A stretch of 53,585 nt of DNA from Terriglobia bacterium (GTDB lineage Bacteria > Acidobacteriota > Terriglobia > Acidiferrales > UBA7541): the NCBI GenBank assembly GCA_041496565.1, contig JBGQEW010000001.1, forward strand, positions 1 through 53,585, written 5' to 3'. Shown one piece after another: positions 11,179-21,880 of the stretch (positions are counted from its first letter, which is position 1; the number at the start of each line of letters is the position of its first letter). The translations under genes and the position numbers were made by a program. The notes under the pieces are model-generated. The model saw only the letters and a list, made by a program, of their open reading frames with translations, ran no database searches and was not told where the DNA came from.

Positions 11179-13163
11179 CTCTGGAACCTCAACAACGCGA
11201 GCAGTGAAACCAGTGCGAGAAAGATGTAAAGCAGATAGACCTGTATGTTTCCCGTCTGCAATCGGCGCACCTGGTGCGCCAGCGAAACAACGAGCTCCAC
11301 AAAGGGCCGATAGAGCGCCCGTTCGTAGGAGGTGGTGCGCACCGACCGATATGAGATGGATACGGGGCAATAGGGCTGATCGGCGGGTAGCCGCTCGACT
11401 TTGCGATCGGGCCGGTAAACTTGGGCGAAGACAAAACGGATCGGTTTCGAGAAAGCTGTGGATGTGTATTGCATGCGACTGGAAAGCTCCGGAAGACCGC
11501 ACGCCCATGTCCGCACCGCTCTCTCCCCGCGCTTGAACAAGGCGACTATCGTGCAGATTCCCAGGATTGCCGCTGCGATCCAGGGGATGATCCGGGTGAT
11601 GCTTAGGATCTCCTCCGGCAGGCCGGCGCCGGGAATCAGCGTTTGGACCAGCGATGCGAGTGGCCACAAGAGAATCCCGGGCAAGATTCCAATGAGCAAG
11701 CAGGCTGCCGCCAGCAGAGTCATCCCGCTGCGCATGAGTATCGGCACCTCCACAGCATGCGCCGCCTCCGCGCTGCGGGGGCGGCCCAAGAAGGCCACAC
11801 CGAACACCTTTACAAAGCACGCCGCCGCCAACCCGCCAATCAGCGCGAGGACCCCGACCATCAACGGCAAGGCAATCTGAGCTTTCGTATTTGTCAGCAC
11901 CGAGCCGGCCAGGAAACTTCGAAACGTGAGCCACTCACTGATGAAGCCATTGAACAGAGGCAGCCCAACGATCGAGCAGCAACCGATCAGGAAGGCCGTT
12001 CCGGTAACCGGCATCCGACGCTGTAACCCGCCAAGCTCCTCCAAATCCACAGTGTGCGTTGCGGTCGAAATGGCACCCGCACCGAGAAAGAGCAGGCTCT
12101 TGAAGAGGGCGTGATTGAAAGTGTGTAAGAGAGCTGCAATAAGCGCCAAAGTCGCCCAAACGGGCGCATGATTGGCGAGAAAAAGCAACGACGTTCCGAG
12201 TCCCAAATAGATAATCCCGATGTTCTCCACGCTGTGATAGGCCAACAACCGCTTAAGATCGTGTTCGGCGATTGCGTACAAAACACCCAGCAGTCCGGAA
12301 GCGGCTCCAGCCAAGAGAACAACGTATCCAGACCAAGGTGGTCCTCCGCCGAGAAAATCAAAGGCAAAGCGCACAAATCCGTACACGGCCGTCTTCAACA
12401 TGATCCCCGACATCAGCGCGGAAACGGGGCTCGGCGCGATGGGGTGTGCCCGGGGCAACCACAAATGCAGCGGGATCAGACCGGCCTTGGCTCCGAATCC
12501 CACGAATGCTGCTACGAAGATGGCAGTCCGAATCCCGCCCGGTATCGCCGCGCTTGCCGCGCGAATGGCTCCAAAATCCAAACTGTGCGAATAGGGCAGG
12601 AAAAGAAAGAAACACGCCGCAACGGCGGCCGCCCCCACATGCATCATCAACAAGTAGATGAAGACATTGTGACGCCGCTCCGGCGAGCCCCCTTCGATTA
12701 AGATGAGAGCGGCGGACACAAGCGTCATCAATTCCCAGCCCGCCAGAAACGCAAAGCCGGTAGACGCCGTGACGACCACGATCATCGAAAGAAGAAACAG
12801 TGAAAGGAACGCCCACGTCCAGTGGCGGCGCTGCCCGGCGTAGTGGAGGTCGAAATACGGGACAGCGAAAATCGTGACCGGAACCGCCACCGCGCAGACC
12901 AACAGCAGGAAAAACGCACTGAGACGGTCGACGGCCAGCGAGAAAGAGAAGGGCGTCACCCAGGATAGATCGAGCAGAGGGGCTGGCTGTCGCAAGAAAC
13001 TGGAGACGGCCACTAGACAGCCCGCCGCGCTGGCGGCGAGAATCAGTGCGACGGCGAGCCTTCGCCAGCCCTTCGCGCGGCCTGCGATCAGAAGGAGAGG
13101 AACGAAGACTCCCAGGGTGCTTAACAGAAAGACGAACGCAGCGCCAGTGTATGCCATTCGCAT
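11175..13163 (-). CDS. HyfB / NuoL-like proton-conducting antiporter-type membrane subunit
   Basis: 662-aa polytopic protein. Contains GWELMTLVSAALI, GAKAGLIPLHLWLPRAHPIAPSPVSALMSGIMLKTAVYGFVRF, LKRLLAYHSVENIGIIYLGLG. Confidence 0.85.
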   Translation of the reverse strand: MRMAYTGAAFVFLLSTLGVFVPLLLIAGRAKGWRRLAVALILAASAAGCLVAVSSFLRQPAPLLDLSWVTPFSFSLAVDRLSAFFLLLVCAVAVPVTIFAVPYFDLHYAGQRRHWTWAFLSLFLLSMIVVVTASTGFAFLAGWELMTLVSAALILIEGGSPERRHNVFIYLLMMHVGAAAVAACFFLFLPYSHSLDFGAIRAASAAIPGGIRTAIFVAAFVGFGAKAGLIPLHLWLPRAHPIAPSPVSALMSGIMLKTAVYGFVRFAFDFLGGGPPWSGYVVLLAGAASGLLGVLYAIAEHDLKRLLAYHSVENIGIIYLGLGTSLLFLANHAPVWATLALIAALLHTFNHALFKSLLFLGAGAISTATHTVDLEELGGLQRRMPVTGTAFLIGCCSIVGLPLFNGFISEWLTFRSFLAGSVLTNTKAQIALPLMVGVLALIGGLAAACFVKVFGVAFLGRPRSAEAAHAVEVPILMRSGMTLLAAACLLIGILPGILLWPLASLVQTLIPGAGLPEEILSITRIIPWIAAAILGICTIVALFKRGERAVRTWACGLPELSSRMQYTSTAFSKPIRFVFAQVYRPDRKVERLPADQPYCPVSISYRSVRTTSYERALYRPFVELVVSLAHQVRRLQTGNIQVYLLYIFLALVSLLALLRFQR

Positions 13164-13167
13164 GCGG

Positions 13168-13518
13168 CTATTTCCAGCGCCGTCCTTCCTTCATTTCCTC
13201 CAACATTTCCCGCACGCCCACCAGGTGATTGTTAAAGATTTCCTTTGCCGCATCCAGCAGTTTGAAAAGAGATGGGTCGGAAATCGAATAGAAGACACTC
13301 GATCCGGACTTCCTTCCCTTTACGATGTTCCGAACCCGCAGCACCGCCAACTGCTGAGAAACGTTCGCCGGTTCGAGCTCAAGCATCTCGCTTAATTCCT
13401 TTACGCCCTTTTCGCCGCCCCGAAGGCAATCCAAAATGCGGATGCGGATCGGATGTGCGAGTGCCTTGAAGAATTCGGCCTTGAAGTTGGCAAGTTGCTG
13501 AAGCATGCGAATGTTCAA
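13168..13518 (-). CDS. ArsR/SmtB-family winged-helix transcriptional regulator, first gene of the Ehr-like operon
   Basis: FFKALAHPIRIRILDCLRGGEKGVKELSEMLELEPANVSQQLAVLRVRNIVKGRKSGSSVFYSI is the ArsR HTH signature. The track start at 13518 is TTG. An in-frame ATG (MLQQL) lies at 13506. The gene ends 5 nt before the HyfB-like gene. Confidence 0.85.
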   Translation of the reverse strand: MNIRMLQQLANFKAEFFKALAHPIRIRILDCLRGGEKGVKELSEMLELEPANVSQQLAVLRVRNIVKGRKSGSSVFYSISDPSLFKLLDAAKEIFNNHLVGVREMLEEMKEGRRWK

Positions 13519-13573
13519 TTATTCAAATATGCTAGACTACATAAAGGATGTTGTCAACACTGGCAGGACCATT

Positions 13574-13683
13574 GAATTGGAAAGGGACATCGTTACCCCC
13601 TAGCGCATTGGGACTGCATTAGTCCCAAGCGATGGGAAGAACTCGCCGCCCGGCGGAGGGAGAGGAGCCGGGCGGCGGCCAGC
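13574..13683. repeat. Copy A of an unclassified non-coding repeat family (full length)
   Basis: GAATTGGAAAGGGACATCGTTACCCCCTAGCGCATT..TGCATTAG.CC.AAGCG.TGGGA.GAACTCGCCGCCCGGCGGAGGG.GAGGAGCC.GGC.GCGGCC is shared with copy C (21673-21782). The first roughly 72 nt are also shared with copy B (20516-20587). Located between the arsR start and the kinase start. Confidence 0.8.
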
Positions 13684-13800
13684 GAGTAAAATCCGGGCGC
13701 CCCTGCCAGCGCTTCCCCTTGATTTGAACTATTGTCTTTCCAACTTGTAATGAGTTGACACCGCGTTGAGTGCCACTTACGATGCCTCTTCAACCGAAAA

Positions 13801-16800
13801 ATGATTGGCCAGACAATTTCGCACTATCGCGTCACCGCAAAGCTGGGCGGTGGCGGGATGGGCGTGTTGTACAAGGCGGAAGACGCGACGCTCGGGCGCG
13901 ACGTCGCGCTTAAATTCATGCCCAGCGACGTGGCCAATGATGCGCAGGCGCTGGAGCGCTTCCGCCGCGAAGCGCGCGCCGCCTCTGCGCTGAACCATCC
14001 GGGCATCTGCACCATCTACGAAATCGGCGAGCATGCCGGGCAGCCGTTCATCGCCATGGAGTTTCTCGAAGGCAACACGCTCAAGCACTTGATTCAGTCC
14101 GAGCGTTTTGAGCTGGAAGTGCTGCTCGATGCGGCCATTCAGATTTCCGACGCGCTGGATGCCGCGCACTCCAAGGGCATCATTCATCGCGACATCAAGC
14201 CTGCCAACCTCTTCCTGACCAGCCGCGGCCAAGCCAAGATTCTCGACTTCGGGCTGGCGAAACAAAGTCCCGGCAAGGGCGCGATGGCAGGGAATGCTGG
14301 CCTTTCCGCGCAAGTGACGGCGGGGTTGAGCGAAGAGCATCTCACCAGTCCGGGCACGGCCATCGGCACGGTCGCCTACATGTCGCCGGAGCAAGCGCTC
14401 GGCAAGCCGCTCGATGCGCGCACAGATCTTTTTTCCTTCGGCGTAGTGCTCTATGAAATGGCCGCCGGCGTGCAGCCGTTTCGCGGAGAAACGTCCGCGG
14501 CCATATTTGATTTCATCCTGCGCCGCACACCGGTCTCGCCGGTGCGCTTGAATCCCGACCTGCCATCGAAACTGGTGGACATCATCAACAAGTTGCTGGA
14601 GAAGGATCCGCGGATGCGCTATCAGCATGCCTCCGATCTCCGCGCGGACTTGCAGCGCCTGAAGCGCGACACCGATTCGGGACGCTCCGCCATTGCGGAG
14701 GCGGCAGAACCCGGCGCGTTCGACGCGCGCAGCGCCGGCCCCAGCGCCGCCGCGGCTGAGGAACTTTCGGTCGCCGTCCTTCCGTTCAAGAACGCTAGCG
14801 GGGATCCCGAGCTTGAAGCGCTGGCCGACGGCCTCACCGAAGACGTGAGCACGGGCTTGTCCCGCTTCTCTTATCTGCACGTGATTTCCCGCGATTCAGC
14901 AATTCCGCCTAAATCCAGATCGGCGGACTCGCACTCGGAGGGGAAATACTCTGGCGCGCGCTACGTGATGGAAAGCGCCGTGCGCAAGTCAGGATCGAAC
15001 GTGCGCATCAGCTCGCGCATCGTGGATACCGCGAGCGGCGAACATCTTTGGGCGGAGAATTACGACCGGGACTTGAAGGCCACCAGCCTGTTCGAGCTGC
15101 AGGACGACGTGACTGCAAAGATCGTTTCGACAGTCGGGGATTGCTACGGCGCGCTCCCTCGGGCCATGGCGGCAGTAGTCAGGCGCAAGCCGAGCGAACA
15201 CGCGACGCCATATGAAGCCGTGCTTCGACAGCTCAACTTCTGGCAGCAGGTTTCTCCTGAGGAGCATGCCATCGTCCGCGCCGGCCTGGAGCGCGCGGTC
15301 GAGCAGGCGCCGGACTATGCCGACGGATGGGCTTCTCTCGCGCTGGTGTATCTGGAAGAGCACTCGCACAGCTTCAATGTACGTCCGGATCCCCTCGGGC
15401 GTGCTGCCGCCGCCACGGCCAAAGCTCTTGCGCTCAACCCGGCCAGCCAGATTGCTTACTACAGTCTCGCGGAGACGCGCTTTTTCCAGAAAGATTTCCA
15501 GGCCTTTCGCCAGGCCGCCGAGCGGGCCGTGGCCCTGAACCCGTTGGATGGCAACACCAAGGCGCTGATGGGAAATCTGACCGCCTATTCGGGGGATTGG
15601 GACCGTGGGTTGGCTCTGGCAGACGAGGCTTTGACGCTCAATCCGCATCATCCGGGGTGGTACCGCTTTGTAAAATTCTGGGGGCACTATCGCAAACATG
15701 AATATCAAGAGGCCCTCACCATTGCGCGCATGATCAACATGCCGGGGAACTTCTACTACCATTCAACGCTAGCTTGCGTCTTAGGGCAGCTTGGCCGCAC
15801 CGAAGAGGCGCAGAGGTCGGTTCAAGAGCTATTGAAGATTTATCCCGATTTTCCCGCCAAGGCGCGCGCGGAGCTGGGCAAATGGCTGGAACCGGACTTG
15901 GTTGAGCAGTTCATCGAGGGCTTGCGCAAGGCCGGGATCGAACTCCCGGAGTTGGACGGTGCGTCGGCCCATCTGTCCTACGCGCCGGTCGCTGCGCCGG
16001 TTGACACGGCCTCAGGGGAAGTGCGTTCCGAGCGGACGGAGTCCGATAGCGGGCGCGCTCGCGCGCAGGGACTGTGGATTGCCGTCCTGCCGTTCACGCA
16101 CTCCGGCGCCGACGCCGAACTGGAATCGTTTGCGGTCGGACTGGCGGAGGACATCAACGCGGGTCTGGCGCGGTTTGCCTATCTTTCCGTTATCGCACGG
16201 AATTCTACCGCCCGTTTCAAGGGACAATCCGAGGATGTGCGCGCTGTAGGAGAGCAATTGGGCGCTCGCTACGTGCTGGAAGGCGGGATTCGCAAAGGCG
16301 CCTCCACGATCCGCATCAACATGCAATTGATCGACACCCAGACCGGCTCGCACTTGTGGGCAGAAACCTACAACCGCAACCTGAAGGATTCCGACATTTT
16401 CTCGGTACAGGACGACATCACGGACCGCGTGGTGGCCACCGTTGCGGACACTAACGGAGTGCTGCTGCGCTCGATGGCTGCCAGCGTGGAAGAAAAACCC
16501 GAAGGCGAGCTGACCGCTGCGGACTGGGTGCTGCGGTACTACAGCTACCGGCAACGCTTAACGCCCGAAGAACACGCCAGGCTCCGCGAAGGCCTTGAGC
16601 GCTTTGTGGAGCGCGGGTCCAGGGATGCGGTCGTGTGGGCCTGCCTCTCGCAACTGTATAGCGATGAATTCAGATTCCGGTTTAACCGGCGCCCGAATGC
16701 GCTGGACCGTGCGCTCGCGGCGTCACGCCGCTCCGTCGACCTCGACCGCACCTGCCAGAACGGACACCAGACCCTTGCGCAAGTCCATTTTTTTCGCCGC

Positions 16801-17910
16801 GACATCCAGGCGTTCCGCACGGCCGCCGAACAGGCCATGGCGCTCAATCCGCGCAACACAGACACTCTTGCTGAAATGGGACTCATGCTCGTGCACATCG
16901 GAGATTTCGAGCGCGGCGCGAATATTACGCGGCGCGCGATGGGCCTCAATCCACACCATTCCGGCTGGTACCACTTCAGTCTCATCTGGGAAAGTTGCAA
17001 CAAAGGAGATTACGAAAAAGCGCTGGAACACGCGACGCGGGTCAACATGCCAGGCTTGTTCTGGCAGCCGCTGGTGGTTGCGTGTCTATGCGGGCTGCTG
17101 GGCCGCCGGGCTGAAGCCGCCGCCGCTGTGCAGGAATTGCGCAATCTGGACAAAGATATCGAACTCCATGCGCGGCAATACATCGAGTGCTGGCATTACT
17201 CGAGCGGGCTGATGGACAGCATTCTGGAGGGGCTCCGCAAGGCCGGGCTGGAGATTGCGGCATCCGAAGCCGCTGCGCCGGAAGTTGCGGCGACCCACGG
17301 CGAGCGAGAGTTGCAGCGCAACGAGAGCGGTTCCGGATTTGACCGGCCCGCAGCCGCGGAATCCGGCTCGGTGCAAGCCAGCGGGCAGAGTTTTTGGATT
17401 GCCGTCTTACCCTTTAAGGCGCAGGGCGGCGATGCGACCCTCGAAGCGTTGGCTGACGGTCTGACCGAAGAGACCACCACGGCGCTTTCGCGTTTTGCCT
17501 ATCTTCAAGTGATCGCCCACAACTCGGCGATGGCCTTCAAGGGCCGCTCGGCGGATATCCACACGGTGGGGCGCGAGCTGGGCGCGCGTTACGTCCTGGA
17601 AGGCAGCGTGCGCAAAGCCGATAGCGAGGTACGCGTGAGCGCGCAATTGATGGATACCGCAAGCGGCACCCAGCTCTGGGGGGAAACCTACGACCGGAAG
17701 ATCGGGGACGCCAGCGTGTTCCAAGTTCAAGACGACTTAGTCGACCGTTTGGTGACTACAGTCGCGGACGGCTATGGAATTCTCGTTCGCTCCATGGCCT
17801 CCGTCATCCGCGACAAACCGGATGAGCTCGCTGCCGGGGTACACGCCGACGTACGACGCGAACGGGAACGTGCTTGGCGACAGCTTGCACAGCTATGCCT
17901 GGGATGCTGA
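13801..17910 (+). CDS. Ser/Thr protein kinase with three tandem sensor modules, the third truncated
   Basis: The N-terminus has the Hanks kinase motifs ([37 protein letters not shown]). Then come three modules beginning (E/L/F)(L/W)(S/I)(V/A)AVLPF at residues 321, 757 and 1198. Each has a TolB-N-like domain (ARYVLEG..RK......V..QL.D..(S/T)G..LW.E.Y.R), and TPR-like regions follow in modules 1 and 2 only. Homology stops at residue about 1345 (nt about 17835). The last 24 codons are unrelated sequence. Confidence 0.85.
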
Positions 17911-19099
17911 AGGCCGTCCCGGAACGATCGACACGGTGGGTATTACGTACGATGCGCTGGGACGCATGGCCGAGCAGAATCGCTCCGGGACATATGCCCA
18001 GTTAGTCTACGCCCCAACGGGCAACAAGCTAGCTCTCATGAGCGGCCAGACGCTGCAAAAGGCATTTGTGCCATTACCTGGGGGAGCCACCGCAGTGTAC
18101 AATTCGAGTGGCTTGGCGTATTACCGCCATCCTGATTGGCTGGGTAGTTCGCGGCTGGCCTCTACGCCGACTCGCGGAATCTATTTCGATACAGCCTATG
18201 GACCCTTTGGCGAGCCCTACGCGCAATCGGGAACGACCGACCTCTCGTTCACGGGTCAAAATCAAGACACGGTGTCAGCGCTCTATGACTTTCCTTTCCG
18301 CGAATACGGCATCCAGGGGCGGTGGCCTTCGCCGGACCCGGCCGGTCTCGCCGCCGTTAATCCCGGTGATCCTCAGTCTTGGAACCGCTATGCCTATGTG
18401 CGCAACTCTCCCCTGACGCTGGTCGATCCGCTTGGGCTCGAAAATTGCCGTGATAACCCAGACGACTGCAAGGCGAGGCAACATGCCTTAAACTTCGATG
18501 CAGTTCTGGCTTACTGGCTCGCCTTGACTCAAAGCGGAGACCTCTTCAGTCTTGTCTGCGGTGGCTGTGACGAATTCGACATTCTGACACTGGCCTTGAC
18601 ACCCACCGCTTACGTCGACACGAGTCCAAATTGTTTGAAGTACGGCGACTGTGGCAAAGGAGATCCGGTTTACGGGAATATCTGGCTCCTGAACTTCCTC
18701 GGTGACGGCGGCAATAGCAGCGGCACAAACAACGGCATGCCGCAAACGCAGACACCGCAGCAAGCCAGCCGACTAAAGGTCTGTGCAGAAACCTATTACG
18801 GCGTCGGTACAGCGGCAACCCGCCTGGGAACGCTGTTGGCTGCTCTGCCCCTCCCGAAGAGTTGGTTCGGCTTACCAGCGGCTCTTGGCTCCGGCTCCAC
18901 GACCACCATACCAAGTGTTCTATCACTAGGATCAGGAACCGCGGCGAGCGGGTCGAACTTGCTGCGAATGGGCGGACGCATAGCAGGACCGGTGGCAGTT
19001 GCAAGCGCCATCATCGATGCGTCGGCGATCGCGGCATGCACCTCCGAGCGTCCCCTTCCGAACTTCCTTTATACGATAGGTAAGTACGATCCCTTCTGA
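17836..19099 (+). CDS. Orphan (5'-truncated) RHS repeat-associated core tip with a C-terminal polymorphic-toxin-type domain of unknown family
   Basis: Frame of ORF 17774-19099. From residue about 21: [22 protein letters not shown]...ITYDALGR (YD repeats), [26 protein letters not shown]...[42 protein letters not shown] (core end with DPxGL at 18425-18439). A 219-aa tail follows with no motif I recognise. The first 20 residues of the track ORF are just the +1 frame of the kinase. Confidence 0.7.
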
Positions 19100-19147
19100 C
19101 CTGCGAAGGAGTCCCCGGGCTGAGGCGGAGAACCAGCGGGAGGCGAG

Positions 19148-19579
19148 ATGGTAGAGCGGAACAAAAGGGATAAAGCTGCGACCACGATTCGCGATCTTAT
19201 CGACGGCAAGATTACGAATGAGGAGTTTATACGTCAGTTTCCGAGGTCTGGGGACGATCCGGCTCTTCCAGCAGTTCTGAAGGCAGTGTGGATGCAGTTC
19301 TCGGATCACCGGATTCATAAACTAACCGGGCGTGATAACCCAACCCCTGAGCTGTGCGCGGTGTTAGAACGATGTTGGCTGTTTTTGACTACGGAACTCG
19401 AATTTCAGTGGCCGCCAGCGAAGTCTCGCGTCGGTAAAGGACTGCTCCAGTTGATTGGCTTGGGCGGACGGTTCCGTGCCTCTGACCAGGAATACAAATC
19501 GCACGGAGATTTTGAAGTATGGCCGTTCCTGAAGAAGAGCGATTACGAGGCTCATAAGCGGAATCTTGAGCGGAACTGA
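19148..19579 (+). CDS. Hypothetical protein, candidate cognate immunity protein of the RHS C-terminal domain
   Basis: 143-aa ORF starting 49 nt after the toxin stop and preceded by GGGAGG. This is the position typical of rhs immunity genes. No recognisable domain. Confidence 0.5.
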   Translation: MVERNKRDKAATTIRDLIDGKITNEEFIRQFPRSGDDPALPAVLKAVWMQFSDHRIHKLTGRDNPTPELCAVLERCWLFLTTELEFQWPPAKSRVGKGLLQLIGLGGRFRASDQEYKSHGDFEVWPFLKKSDYEAHKRNLERN

Positions 19580-19723
19580 GTTGCCGCAATCGCAGCGGAA
19601 CCCGAATACCACGTGGGCGGGAAAGGTCTGTGGGGCTGTGAGCTGGGTCGGCGGGTGGGCCATCCTTGGCTCCCGAGGTTCTTTTGAGAGTTCTCTGCGC
19701 TGTCGAACTTGAACCTCCGGGTG

Positions 19724-19756
19724 CCGCATCCTCTGCGCCCTTCGCAGAGGGTGCGG
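19724..19756. other. 14-bp stem-loop (13 Watson-Crick pairs plus one G-U) in a non-coding stretch
   Basis: CCGCATCCTCTGCG-ccctt-CGCAGAGGGTGCGG. Lies about 145 nt downstream of the candidate immunity gene. No clear U-tract follows. Confidence 0.4.
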
Positions 19757-19887
19757 GGTTTCGATTGCCCCTTCCCCTGCCCACTCTCTTCCCCCTGTGC
19801 CGCCCAAGGGCAGTTTCCGGCCCTCGCGGCCTTTGCCTTGTCCCGCGACCCTGCGCCTGATAGATTCCACACGCCGGTAGAAGACGT

Positions 19888-20229
19888 ATGAGACTTTCAC
19901 TTCCTTTCGCGCCGCCTCATCCGCGCTTTTTGGCTTGGTGCCAAGCGGCTTCCGGTCGGCGAGATGAGGCACTGCAGACGCTCGCGGAGCTCCAGGGGCG
20001 CTCGGACAAGGAGTACATTTCGCCGCTCTTCTTGGCATGGGGTCATAGCGAGCTGGGCGAACTCGTGCGGGCAAAAGAGCTACTTCAGGAGGCATTCACC
20101 GAACGGTCCTACTTACTAGTGCTTCCACAGATGCCGTGCTTCCGAAAACTGCGACAAGAGCCGCTGATGGAAGGTTTGCGGCGGCGACTCCTCGGGCAAA
20201 GCCTCGGCGCATCGGAATCATCGGCCTGA
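19888..20229 (+). pseudogene. 5'-truncated remnant: C-terminal TPR-like end of a larger protein
   Basis: ...LAWCQAASGRRDEALQTLAELQGRSDKEYISPLFLAWGHSELGELVRAKELLQEAFTERSYLLVLPQMPCFRKLRQEPLMEGLRRRL resembles the conserved C-terminal roughly 100 aa of TPR-tailed kinases/regulators (..GRRDEAL..L.EL.....YVSP........G.......L..A...R......L...P.F..LR.(D/E)P.....L.RR.). There is no N-terminal domain, no convincing start and no RBS. Confidence 0.45.
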
Positions 20230-20366
20230 TTCTCTCCCAATGCAAAATTCTCGTGCAGTTGAGTGCCGGCGGCATGGGCGTGCTTGTCAGAAACGGCATC
20301 CTCTGGACAAGAAACTTGACTCCAACTTGGGTCCAAATAGCTGCCGAATACCGGCCTATGGAAGAA

Positions 20367-20441
20367 TGGCTCCCCGGGCTAGATTCGAACTAGCAACCCT
20401 TCGGTTAACAGCCGAATGCTCTACCATTGAGCTACCGGGGA
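20367..20441 (-). tRNA. tRNA-Asn (anticodon GTT), CCA encoded
   Basis: Reverse complement: TCCCCGG TA GCTC AATGGTA GAGC A TTCGG CTGTTAA CCGAA GGGTT GCTAG TTCGAAT CTAGC CCGGGGA G CCA. Cloverleaf with a 7-bp acceptor stem, T-loop TTCGAAT and anticodon loop CT-GTT-AA. Confidence 0.93.
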
Positions 20442-20515
20442 ACCGTCTTGTTACCTTTTGGTTTTCAAACAGCCTACGCTACCTCTTGATTTTGCGCAAC
20501 CAAGTCACCTGGTTG

Positions 20516-20587
20516 GAATTGGAAAGGGACATCGTTACCCCCTAGCGCATTTGAAGTGCATTAGCCCCAAGCGGTGGGAAGAACTCG
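20516..20587. repeat. Copy B of the repeat family (5' 72 nt only, GC-rich tail absent)
   Basis: GAATTGGAAAGGGACATCGTTACCCCCTAGCGCATTTGAAGTGCATTAGCCCCAAGCGGTGGGAAGAACTCG, then it diverges. Lies 75 nt from the 5' end of tRNA-Asn. Confidence 0.8.
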
Positions 20588-20659
20588 TCCAGAGTTTTCT
20601 TCGGCTCATTGCCACCGTGGTCTTTCGGGTGGCGCAGGGTTGGTCGGTGCGCGGTGGCG

Positions 20660-20944
20660 TTACTGCACGCGCTGTTTCTCGGAATCCAGGCCGATGAGGG
20701 ACTCGAAGATGGCAAGGACATGCCGGCGGTATTCGAGGATGCGCTCGAGGATGGCGCGCAATTGAGGCTCGTGCACCGTTTCACGGTCCCATTTGGCGAG
20801 CACCGCCGCGGGCACCTCGATGTCGCGCCGAAGCTCTTCGGCGGAATGCCCGCGCAAGAACAGGCCGTAGAAGAATGCGGCTTCCCGCTGCGGATACTCG
20901 AAGTCGTGCGCGACTTCCTCAACCGGATTGTATTGCGTCGCCAT
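20660..20944 (-). CDS. Hypothetical small protein (94 aa)
   Basis: Met26 of ORF 20660-21019: MATQYNPVEEVAHDFEYPQREAAFFYGLFLRGHSAEELRRDIEVPAAVLAKWDRE... The composition looks like a real protein and there is a possible short HTH-like segment. No family recognised. Confidence 0.45.
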   Translation of the reverse strand: MATQYNPVEEVAHDFEYPQREAAFFYGLFLRGHSAEELRRDIEVPAAVLAKWDRETVHEPQLRAILERILEYRRHVLAIFESLIGLDSEKQRVQ

Positions 20945-21023
20945 CGCAGAAAAGTGCAGTTTACAGTTTTCGCGGGAACCGTCAAGAGGCCGTATAGTAG
21001 GTGTGGTGCAAAGAGGCAAAGGA

Positions 21024-21386
21024 CTAGATGCGGGCGCGGCTCGCGCGCAGGTAATCCCGAAGCGCCCAAACGTTGGGGCCGTAGGAGCCTACGCGACCGG
21101 CGTCCACCGGCAAGCCAAACTGCTCGGCTTGATCGAGGCTGACGCCGGCATCATCCAGCTCCGCGAGGCTGTAGCCTTCGGTGGGCACCAGGCGGTTTCG
21201 GCTGGAGCGGTCAACGGGCCGCGGCGGGCGCGAGCCTTGCCAGGGCTTCCGAACAATCTGGAAGAATTCGTCCCAGTCGCGCCGATTCCACATGTGCCCC
21301 TCCCGCGCCCTGCCGAACGTTTCGGGTCCGAAAGATTGGATGCAGCATGGGCTCGGCGGGTCGCTTGCCCGCTCGAGCTTTTCCAT
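21024..21386 (-). CDS. Hypothetical protein with a ribosomal-protein-L13e-like segment
   Basis: ...RPPRPVDRSSRNRLVPTEGYSLAELDDAGVSLDQAEQFGLPVDAGRVGSYGPNVWALRDYL follows the G(F/Y)SL.EL..AG(I/V)....A...G(I/L).VD..R......NV..L(K/R)(D/E)Y pattern of eukaryotic/archaeal L13e as I remember it. The start is uncertain (M1 at 21386 or M32, MWNRRDW). Confidence 0.45.
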   Translation of the reverse strand: MEKLERASDPPSPCCIQSFGPETFGRAREGHMWNRRDWDEFFQIVRKPWQGSRPPRPVDRSSRNRLVPTEGYSLAELDDAGVSLDQAEQFGLPVDAGRVGSYGPNVWALRDYLRASRARI

Positions 21387-21672: not shown

Positions 21673-21782
21673 GAATTGGAAAGGGACATCGTTACCCCTA
21701 GAGCATTTGAAGTGCATTAGCCCGAAGCGGTGGGAGGAACTCGCCGCCCGGCGGAGGGGGAGGAGCCTGGCAGCGGCCGGCA
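21673..21782. repeat. Copy C of the repeat family (full length)
   Basis: GAATTGGAAAGGGACATCGTTACCCCTAGAGCATTTGAAGTGCATTAGCCCGAAGCGGTGGGAGGAACTCGCCGCCCGGCGGAGGGGGAGGAGCCTGGCAGCGGCCGGC. It has a 1-nt deletion in the C-run relative to copies A and B. Confidence 0.8.
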
Positions 21783-21880
21783 CGCCCCTAGTTCCACCAA
21801 ATCCAATTTCAGGGCCGATGGATGTGATATAGACTCTCTCATTCGCCGTGGTATGTAACTCGGTCTGGTCAGGAGGGGCA

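Follow-up and report, generated by a model that had tools for sequence, protein, structure and literature searches.

C-terminal displacement in rhs genes and the dissociated tips that go with it have been described (Jackson 2009, PMC2935791), as have orphan rhs-CT/rhsI modules (Poole 2011, PMC3150448), and an orphan was found to be mobilised by recombination with the main rhs gene (Koskiniemi 2014, PMC3967940). The known routes by which orphans are reactivated depend on a main rhs gene being present in the genome with a core that matches (PMC3967940, PMC2935791). In Salmonella, internal promoters and starts yield toxic products from both main and orphan rhs genes (PMC7043789). In Terriglobia, Rhs proteins of ~1530-1650 aa are found which carry a Sec signal; examples are a 1569-aa protein with signal peptide, followed by two orphan tips, in genome G009, and full-length genes from Candidatus Acidoferrum and Acidobacteriaceae MAGs.

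The locus reported here lies within a window, i.e. the whole stretch of DNA analysed, of 53,585 nucleotides, which is contig C1 of a 2.27-Mb MAG (179 contigs, 74% complete), whose relatives are Terriglobia/Acidobacteriota. By its sequence, the element contained in the window belongs to the orphan rhs-CT/rhsI modules as described by Jackson 2009 and Poole 2011, although it is located outside any rhs locus and within another gene. The arrangement is probably a genuine genomic scar and not a gene fusion, formed when an orphan Rhs tip cassette was joined by illegitimate recombination to the third module of a kinase gene. An orphan rhs tip recombined into an unrelated gene had already been proposed in a preliminary description of this DNA, and both the domain assignments of the two parts and the ends of their homologies agree with it. 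The features of the locus are the following:

13801 to 17799, + strand: kinase-derived part, with the Pkinase domain, two full TolB_N-like + TPR modules and the TolB_N-like half of a third
17791 to 17823, + strand: junction interval, in which the family-typical residues of both parents overlap and the reading frame shifts by +1
17810 to 18439, + strand: end of the Rhs core, with three YD-type repeats, GRWPSPDP and DPLGL, in frame +1 relative to the kinase
18440 to 19099, + strand: variable C-terminal (CT) domain, presumed toxin, 219 aa with 8 Cys
19148 to 19579, + strand: candidate immunity gene, coding for a soluble protein of 143 aa, with 4 nt between a GGGAGG Shine-Dalgarno sequence and the ATG
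19724 to 19756, + strand: terminator-like hairpin with a 14-bp stem, followed by GGTTTCGATT
19888 to 20229, + strand: relic ORF of 113 codons, corresponding to the final ~95 codons of a protein with a TPR tail (homology 19909 to 20190)
20367 to 20441, - strand: tRNA-Asn (GTT), identified by ARAGORN and Rfam

The module resembles the described orphan rhs-CT/rhsI modules in being made up of a 5'-truncated core fragment, a DPxGL motif, a variable CT and a small immunity-type ORF downstream, in having no proper translational start, and in the lower GC content of both tip and immunity gene. It differs from them in that the tip is not located downstream of a full-length rhs gene with a shared core, being found instead inside an unrelated kinase gene and out of frame with it, and in that no recombination partner is visible in the available 74% of the genome. 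With the orphan Rhs of Salmonella Typhimurium, which is TA-like of type II (PMC7043789), it shares the combination of a tip and an immunity gene, the absence of a delivery part and the presence of in-frame internal starts; unlike in that system, neither an internal promoter nor an internal Shine-Dalgarno sequence was found, and its toxin family is unrelated. Compared with the Terriglobia proteins carrying a Sec signal, the end of the core is 60-72% identical, and core motifs and DPxGL are shared, but only the last ~13% is contained in the window, the signal peptide and ~1150 shell residues being gone.

The interrupted gene is an ORF of 1369 aa (13801-17910, + strand) in which a Hanks-type Ser/Thr kinase domain (Pfam Pkinase, E 1e-46) is followed by three paralogous TolB_N-like + TPR modules; TolB_N, LpoB and TPR were also matched in Pfam. 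Homologues of 1550-2312 aa with 3-5 such modules are common in Acidobacteriota. The ORF in the window is similar to these multi-module Hanks kinases in the kinase domain and modules (60-72% identity) and has the same order of blocks; it differs from them in its third module, deprived of the TPR half, and in its tail, which is made of out-of-frame Rhs sequence. Alignment of the modules revealed that modules 1 and 2 are complete and that module 3 ends after the residues RSMA, so that its TPR half is missing, in agreement with the loss proposed in the preliminary description. The same description placed the cut in the middle of a domain, whereas the TolB_N-like domain of module 3 is intact (Pfam TolB_N at residues 1196-1292), and the cut is found at the linker between this domain and the missing TPR part. 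Relative to the closest kinase (G002:C1), DNA identity is 75% from 17392 to 17798. The shortened kinase, with its two full modules, is probably still functional. The kinases with 3-5 tandem TolB_N-like + TPR modules (P0003-P0121, up to 2312 aa) form a large Acidobacteriota family, in which modules are often nearer to those of other proteins than to their own sister modules.

Relative to the kinase, the +1 frame is open from 17756 to 19099, and the Rhs ORF is uninterrupted over 447 codons. The previous assignment of this frame to an RHS core is borne out by a match to the NCBIfam model TIGR03696 (Rhs_assc_core, residues 142-222, E 6e-15, 55.5 bits vs a curated cut-off of 32.5) and by amino acid identities of 70-81% to Terriglobia Rhs proteins, the closest core being that of P0122 (81% aa and 82% nt identity). 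Against the PDB, the core also aligns with the TccC3/YenC2 shells over their ~110 C-terminal residues (E 5e-4 to 1e-2). The cleavage motif DPLGL, of the DPxGL autoproteolysis type, is found intact at 18425-18439. An N-terminal export or delivery domain is absent, as already stated in the preliminary description: the homology begins at 17810-17814 and kinase sequence lies upstream of it. The YD-repeat shell, of at least ~1000 residues, is also absent. The earlier wording that no shell repeats are present is slightly too strong, since the piece keeps its entire core plug together with about three repeats of YD type (17852, 17900, 17948); Pfam RHS_repeat was not matched in the Rhs piece. A start had been reported as lacking altogether. 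Candidate start codons do exist (ATG 17774, ATG 17822 and GTG 17870), but a clear Shine-Dalgarno sequence was not found before any of the three, so that the claim stands in this restricted form. Having neither export signal nor shell, the Rhs piece could not be delivered to other cells.

Neither the CT domain nor the 143-aa protein matched a family in Pfam or NCBIfam. The last ~90 residues of the CT domain are rich in Gly, Ala and Ser and mildly hydrophobic. The C-terminal sub-domain (18770-19045, CT residues ~110-201) is 45-51% identical to the extreme C-termini of the Rhs proteins P0246 and P0138. Sequence data suggest that the Gly/Ala/Ser-rich sub-domain is the actual toxin unit. In P0246 and P0138, the sub-domain recurs behind different linkers. 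The pairing of the CT domain, as a presumed toxin, with the candidate immunity gene is supported by the position of the latter directly after the CT and by its Shine-Dalgarno sequence. The candidate immunity protein is soluble, which would fit poorly with a membrane-acting toxin. The exact 143-aa protein was found at this locus only; a gene neighbouring a related toxin at locus L119, considered as a possible immunity homologue, is unrelated and was rejected. GC content is 0.57 in the CT and 0.52 in the immunity gene, lower than the 0.62 of the kinase. The hairpin at 19724-19756 is probably the 3' end of the transcription unit of the cassette, an assignment that is suggestive only, such sites being no commoner than in shuffled sequences.

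The join was located by following both homologies to their ends. Kinase DNA homology to G002 stops at 17798, where the last bases are CGC TCC ATG GC (RSMA), and Rhs DNA homology to P0122 (82%) spans 17814 to 18399. At the protein level, a 20-aa peptide encoded at 17810-17869 is identical at all 20 positions in the Rhs protein P0201, and the consensus at the Rhs start, in ~150 relatives, is SFQPTY-S-[ST]-ATNRM. The sequence at 17800-17813 is compatible with either parent, since it reads x-x-[VIL]-R-D in the kinase frame, as 'RSLAAAVRDKPVEE', and S-S-A-T in the Rhs frame; family-typical residues are kept in both frames over 17800-17826. As both readings fit there, the crossover can be placed only within 17791-17823, ~15-45 nt upstream of the breakpoint at 17835/17836 given in the preliminary description. 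Kinase homology had there been extended up to ...DKPDELAA, but the residues KPDELAA of the kinase frame are also encoded, in the -1 frame, by the Rhs gene P0122, where the corresponding DNA, AAACCGGATGAGCTCGCTGCC, is identical. Since a plain Rhs gene encodes this peptide, its likeness to module 2 stems from Rhs DNA. The stop at 17910, ending the kinase frame, was correctly identified; the out-of-frame, Rhs-derived tail preceding it amounts to 29-37 codons, and not to 24 unrelated ones.

Two candidate microhomologies are found in the interval: TCCATGGC (17791-17798), common to the kinase and to the leader of the orphan tip L050/P0190, and CGCGACAAACCGG (17809-17821), the latter if the ancestral module was ...RDKPVEE. 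Illegitimate recombination at the level of such microhomologies would have joined the cassette to the third sensor module, the crossover within 17791-17823 setting the Rhs frame at +1, and would have removed the remaining interior of the kinase gene. The cassette itself would have comprised the last ~205 codons of the Rhs core, the 219-aa CT, the 143-aa immunity gene and probably the terminator.

The window being a MAG contig, and short similar patches occurring at the join, a chimeric metagenome assembly was considered, in which a short word common to both would have linked kinase reads of one genome to Rhs reads of another. The comparison with other assemblies speaks strongly against it. Six other contigs, two from JGI (3300052992, 3300053056), two from NCBI (GCA_041483375.1, GCA_041492135.1) and two from Logan (SRR29605738, SRR35962389), encode both the 143-aa protein and the identical 1369-aa product, out-of-frame tail included. 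These contigs are independent, coming from at least five samples and from different pipelines (JGI, NCBI MAGs, Logan), and each of the six runs collinear with the window through the join, with 99.57-99.97% identity over 1.9-12.9 kb. No SNPs are found among the six in the Rhs module. For the GCA_041483375.1 contig, a SNP map showed no differences from the window over 11923-20441 and 40 differences in 20451-21251. As the differences begin only beyond the tRNA-Asn, where they reach 5%, this contig represents a distinct strain carrying the same join. The agreement between assemblies therefore makes a chimera very unlikely and points to a real join; the chimeric reading, extremely improbable on these grounds, is nearly refuted already. 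Besides a misassembly, the preliminary description had named an intact in-frame fusion of kinase and Rhs in related genomes as an outcome that would speak against its reading; no such fusion was found, all copies having the +1 offset.

A real join might still code for a functional kinase-Rhs fusion, if programmed +1 ribosomal frameshifting took place in the 17756-17910 overlap, where both frames are open over 155 nt; the identity of the arrangement in all copies would agree with this. Yet a known +1 shift site is absent, the kinase lacks both a transmembrane segment and a signal peptide, and a shell-less core stub of 205 residues cannot encapsulate or deliver a toxin, while the overlap simply reflects where the next stops fall. 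The probability left to such a fusion is practically negligible. Given the +1 offset and the absence of a known shift site, the kinase and Rhs parts would not form one protein.

According to the scar reading, the most likely present state of the Rhs piece would be that of a silent spare toxin tip. The immunity gene would be the part most likely still used, possibly protecting against neighbours that deploy the same toxin, because it has a strong ribosome-binding site whereas none is found before the toxin starts. It is decidedly unlikely, instead, that the module is not silent, the CT toxin being made from ATG 17822 or GTG 17870 and forming with the immunity protein a selfish, TA-like addiction pair. 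Such a pair would account for the presence of the module in every sampled strain, and several observations are in keeping with it: the precedent of internally expressed main and orphan rhs genes in Salmonella (PMC7043789), the intactness of both the 447-codon ORF and DPLGL, the many database orphans of the same Rhs family which are called from the Met of the NRM motif, and the lack of SNPs in the module across the six contigs. This last observation, however, also fits a recent sweep and is uninformative on selection. In addition, no Shine-Dalgarno sequence precedes any candidate start, and no promoter-like site was found on the + strand in 17300-20500.

A source for the cassette was sought in the genome and in public sequences. 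No full-length rhs gene, nor any other Rhs sequence, was found in the 2.27-Mb MAG (74% complete), and the search for a donor or recipient with a shared core, suggested in the preliminary description, thus gave no full-length candidate there. The best public match, P0122, is itself a fragment of 719 aa without N-terminus, carried by a contig outside the MAG and ending in a different CT domain. P0122 (L051/L052, 8001-10160; JGI 3300053056/3300052992) is flanked by an aminotransferase and a TonB-dependent receptor, and both samples in which it occurs also contain the window population. Full-length members of this Rhs family measure 1526-1650 aa and have a signal peptide, while its orphan fragments usually have 200-260 residues before DPxGL. 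Several orphan tips (P0190, P0212, P0146, P0252, P0198) start exactly at the ATNR..SLPG position. In addition, the leader of the orphan L050/P0190 matches, at 16 of 19 positions, a ~19-nt block within 17791-17812 of the window, directly upstream of where the Rhs homology begins. The leader block was searched for elsewhere by a metagenome pattern scan, which returned 66 matches, all in unrelated GC-rich contexts; a stricter pattern gave no matches in genome contigs, and a protein search with the P0190 N-terminus found no other 'PWPP' leader. The 'PWPP' of P0190 was also considered as a second kinase junction and rejected, the upstream sequence being an immunity gene in an unrelated rhs array.

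Arrays composed of a main rhs gene and orphan tips are frequent in the same bacterial family, and stranded tips also occur outside rhs loci, the P0122 fragment being one example. Another, P0146 (L123, 4824-6326; JGI 3300054984), starts 90 nt after a tRNA-Leu(CAA) and is preceded by a perfect hairpin; its neighbours are aspartate kinase, homoserine dehydrogenase and a response regulator. For these reasons, i.e. the recurrent 5' end, the shared leader, the arrays and the tips stranded elsewhere, the arrival of a pre-formed orphan is favoured over a random deletion endpoint, and we infer from the sequences that the cassette was already an orphan on arrival. There is, in addition, a slim chance that the tips of this Terriglobia Rhs family are discrete mobile cassettes, having a fixed 5' end before 'ATNR..SLPG', a short conserved leader and a dedicated or semi-specific placement mechanism, with occasional ectopic target-like sites such as the RSMA of the kinase (TCCATGGC). 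A mechanism of this kind, if real, could insert tips into the rhs genes already present and only occasionally at ectopic positions.

The same structure could have arisen by deletion, if a complete rhs locus had once been present between the kinase and the tRNA-Asn and a single event had fused module 3 to its last orphan, with the loss of the 3' part of the kinase, of the main rhs gene and of any earlier tips. A single deletion is a simple event, and the structure of the locus, the frequency of main gene and orphan arrays in the family and the absence of a main rhs gene from the MAG (74% complete) are all compatible with it. Neither an intact orthologous kinase nor an empty site was found, the genus mates holding paralogues only, so that deletion from a once-adjacent rhs locus keeps some probability. 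It is nevertheless considered unlikely. The Rhs 5' end matches the recurrent 5' end of orphan tips and has a leader in common with one orphan elsewhere, which would be a coincidence for a random endpoint; it would be expected only of an endpoint located in the short spacer that precedes an orphan already in place. Moreover, the TPR relic on the right is left unexplained.

Over 19909-20190, this relic shares 35-38% identity with the final ~90 residues of multi-module kinases of 1935-2391 aa (P0076, P0102, P0105, P0020 and others), and 35-45% with the C-termini of single-module kinase/TPR proteins of 500-860 aa. Upstream of 19909, homology was not found in any frame. The relic shares the frame of the kinase ORF, which would occur by chance in one case out of three. 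That it represents the old 3' end of the same kinase is about as plausible as not, leaning slightly to the negative: this reading is weakened by the closest homologues of module 3, which mostly end with '...GLRKAGLE', unlike the tail of the relic. Because a TPR tail brackets the cassette on the right, the cassette may sit inside the old kinase gene, the interior of which would have been replaced by the recombination proposed above. If the relic is indeed the old end of the kinase, the tRNA-Asn is merely the next gene.

The preliminary description placed the variable segment directly 3' of the tRNA-Asn, regarded as an integration hotspot. The location is correct (20367-20441, minus strand), but its interpretation as integration at a tRNA is not supported, given the bracketing of the cassette by a TPR tail and the absence of an integrase and of an att repeat: in 17.8-20.4 kb, Pfam and NCBIfam revealed no integrase-like ORF, and the search for a repeat of the tRNA 3' end gave a single match, 17 nt at 82%, which is at chance level. 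Orphan tips are not generally adjacent to tRNA genes either, this being the case for one of 17 loci, and the corresponding hypothesis was rejected.

Despite the lack of integration signs in the window segment, variable islands adjoin the tRNA-Asn in genus mates. It is followed by inserts of 0.3, 1.9 and 6.3 kb in L037 (G001:C39), L038 (G004:C15) and L036 (G002:C2), respectively; each of them lies on the 3' side of the tRNA, with 36-61 nt of the tRNA 3' end repeated as a partial copy at its border, in a classical island geometry. The DedA-like and P-type-ATPase-like neighbours of these inserts are absent at the window locus, and the left flank of the window (ArsR/Ehr operon) is missing from the genus mates.

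The tRNA-Asn is also a strain-level recombination boundary, with a break in the SNP pattern at 20441/20451. Relative to the GCA_041483375.1 contig (L044), a mosaic is seen in which the 8.5 kb on the left, including the tRNA-Asn, contain no differences, while the next 800 nt contain 40 (5%), mostly synonymous in the two small minus-strand ORFs. The left block indicates a recent recombination or sweep between strains.

Both orphan Rhs tips and what remains of them after decay have been well documented, and in principle the locus adds little that is new. It provides a clean, population-fixed case of a tip cassette outside any rhs locus truncating a signalling gene, and would extend the pool of 'dissociated tips' to ectopic chromosomal sites in soil Acidobacteriota. 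As for annotation, the 1369-aa 'kinase' would be better described as a truncated gene ending in 29-37 nonsense residues, the 409/441-aa 'hypothetical protein' as an undeliverable Rhs stub and the 113-aa ORF as a gene relic.

A non-coding direct repeat of 72-117 nt is present around the locus in three copies with the same orientation, at 13574-13690, 20516-20587 and 21673-21790 of the window. Among 21 relatives, the repeat is confined to this genome. Its third copy is polymorphic in the population, an unrelated 79-nt stretch being found in its place in the JGI 3300053056 contig.
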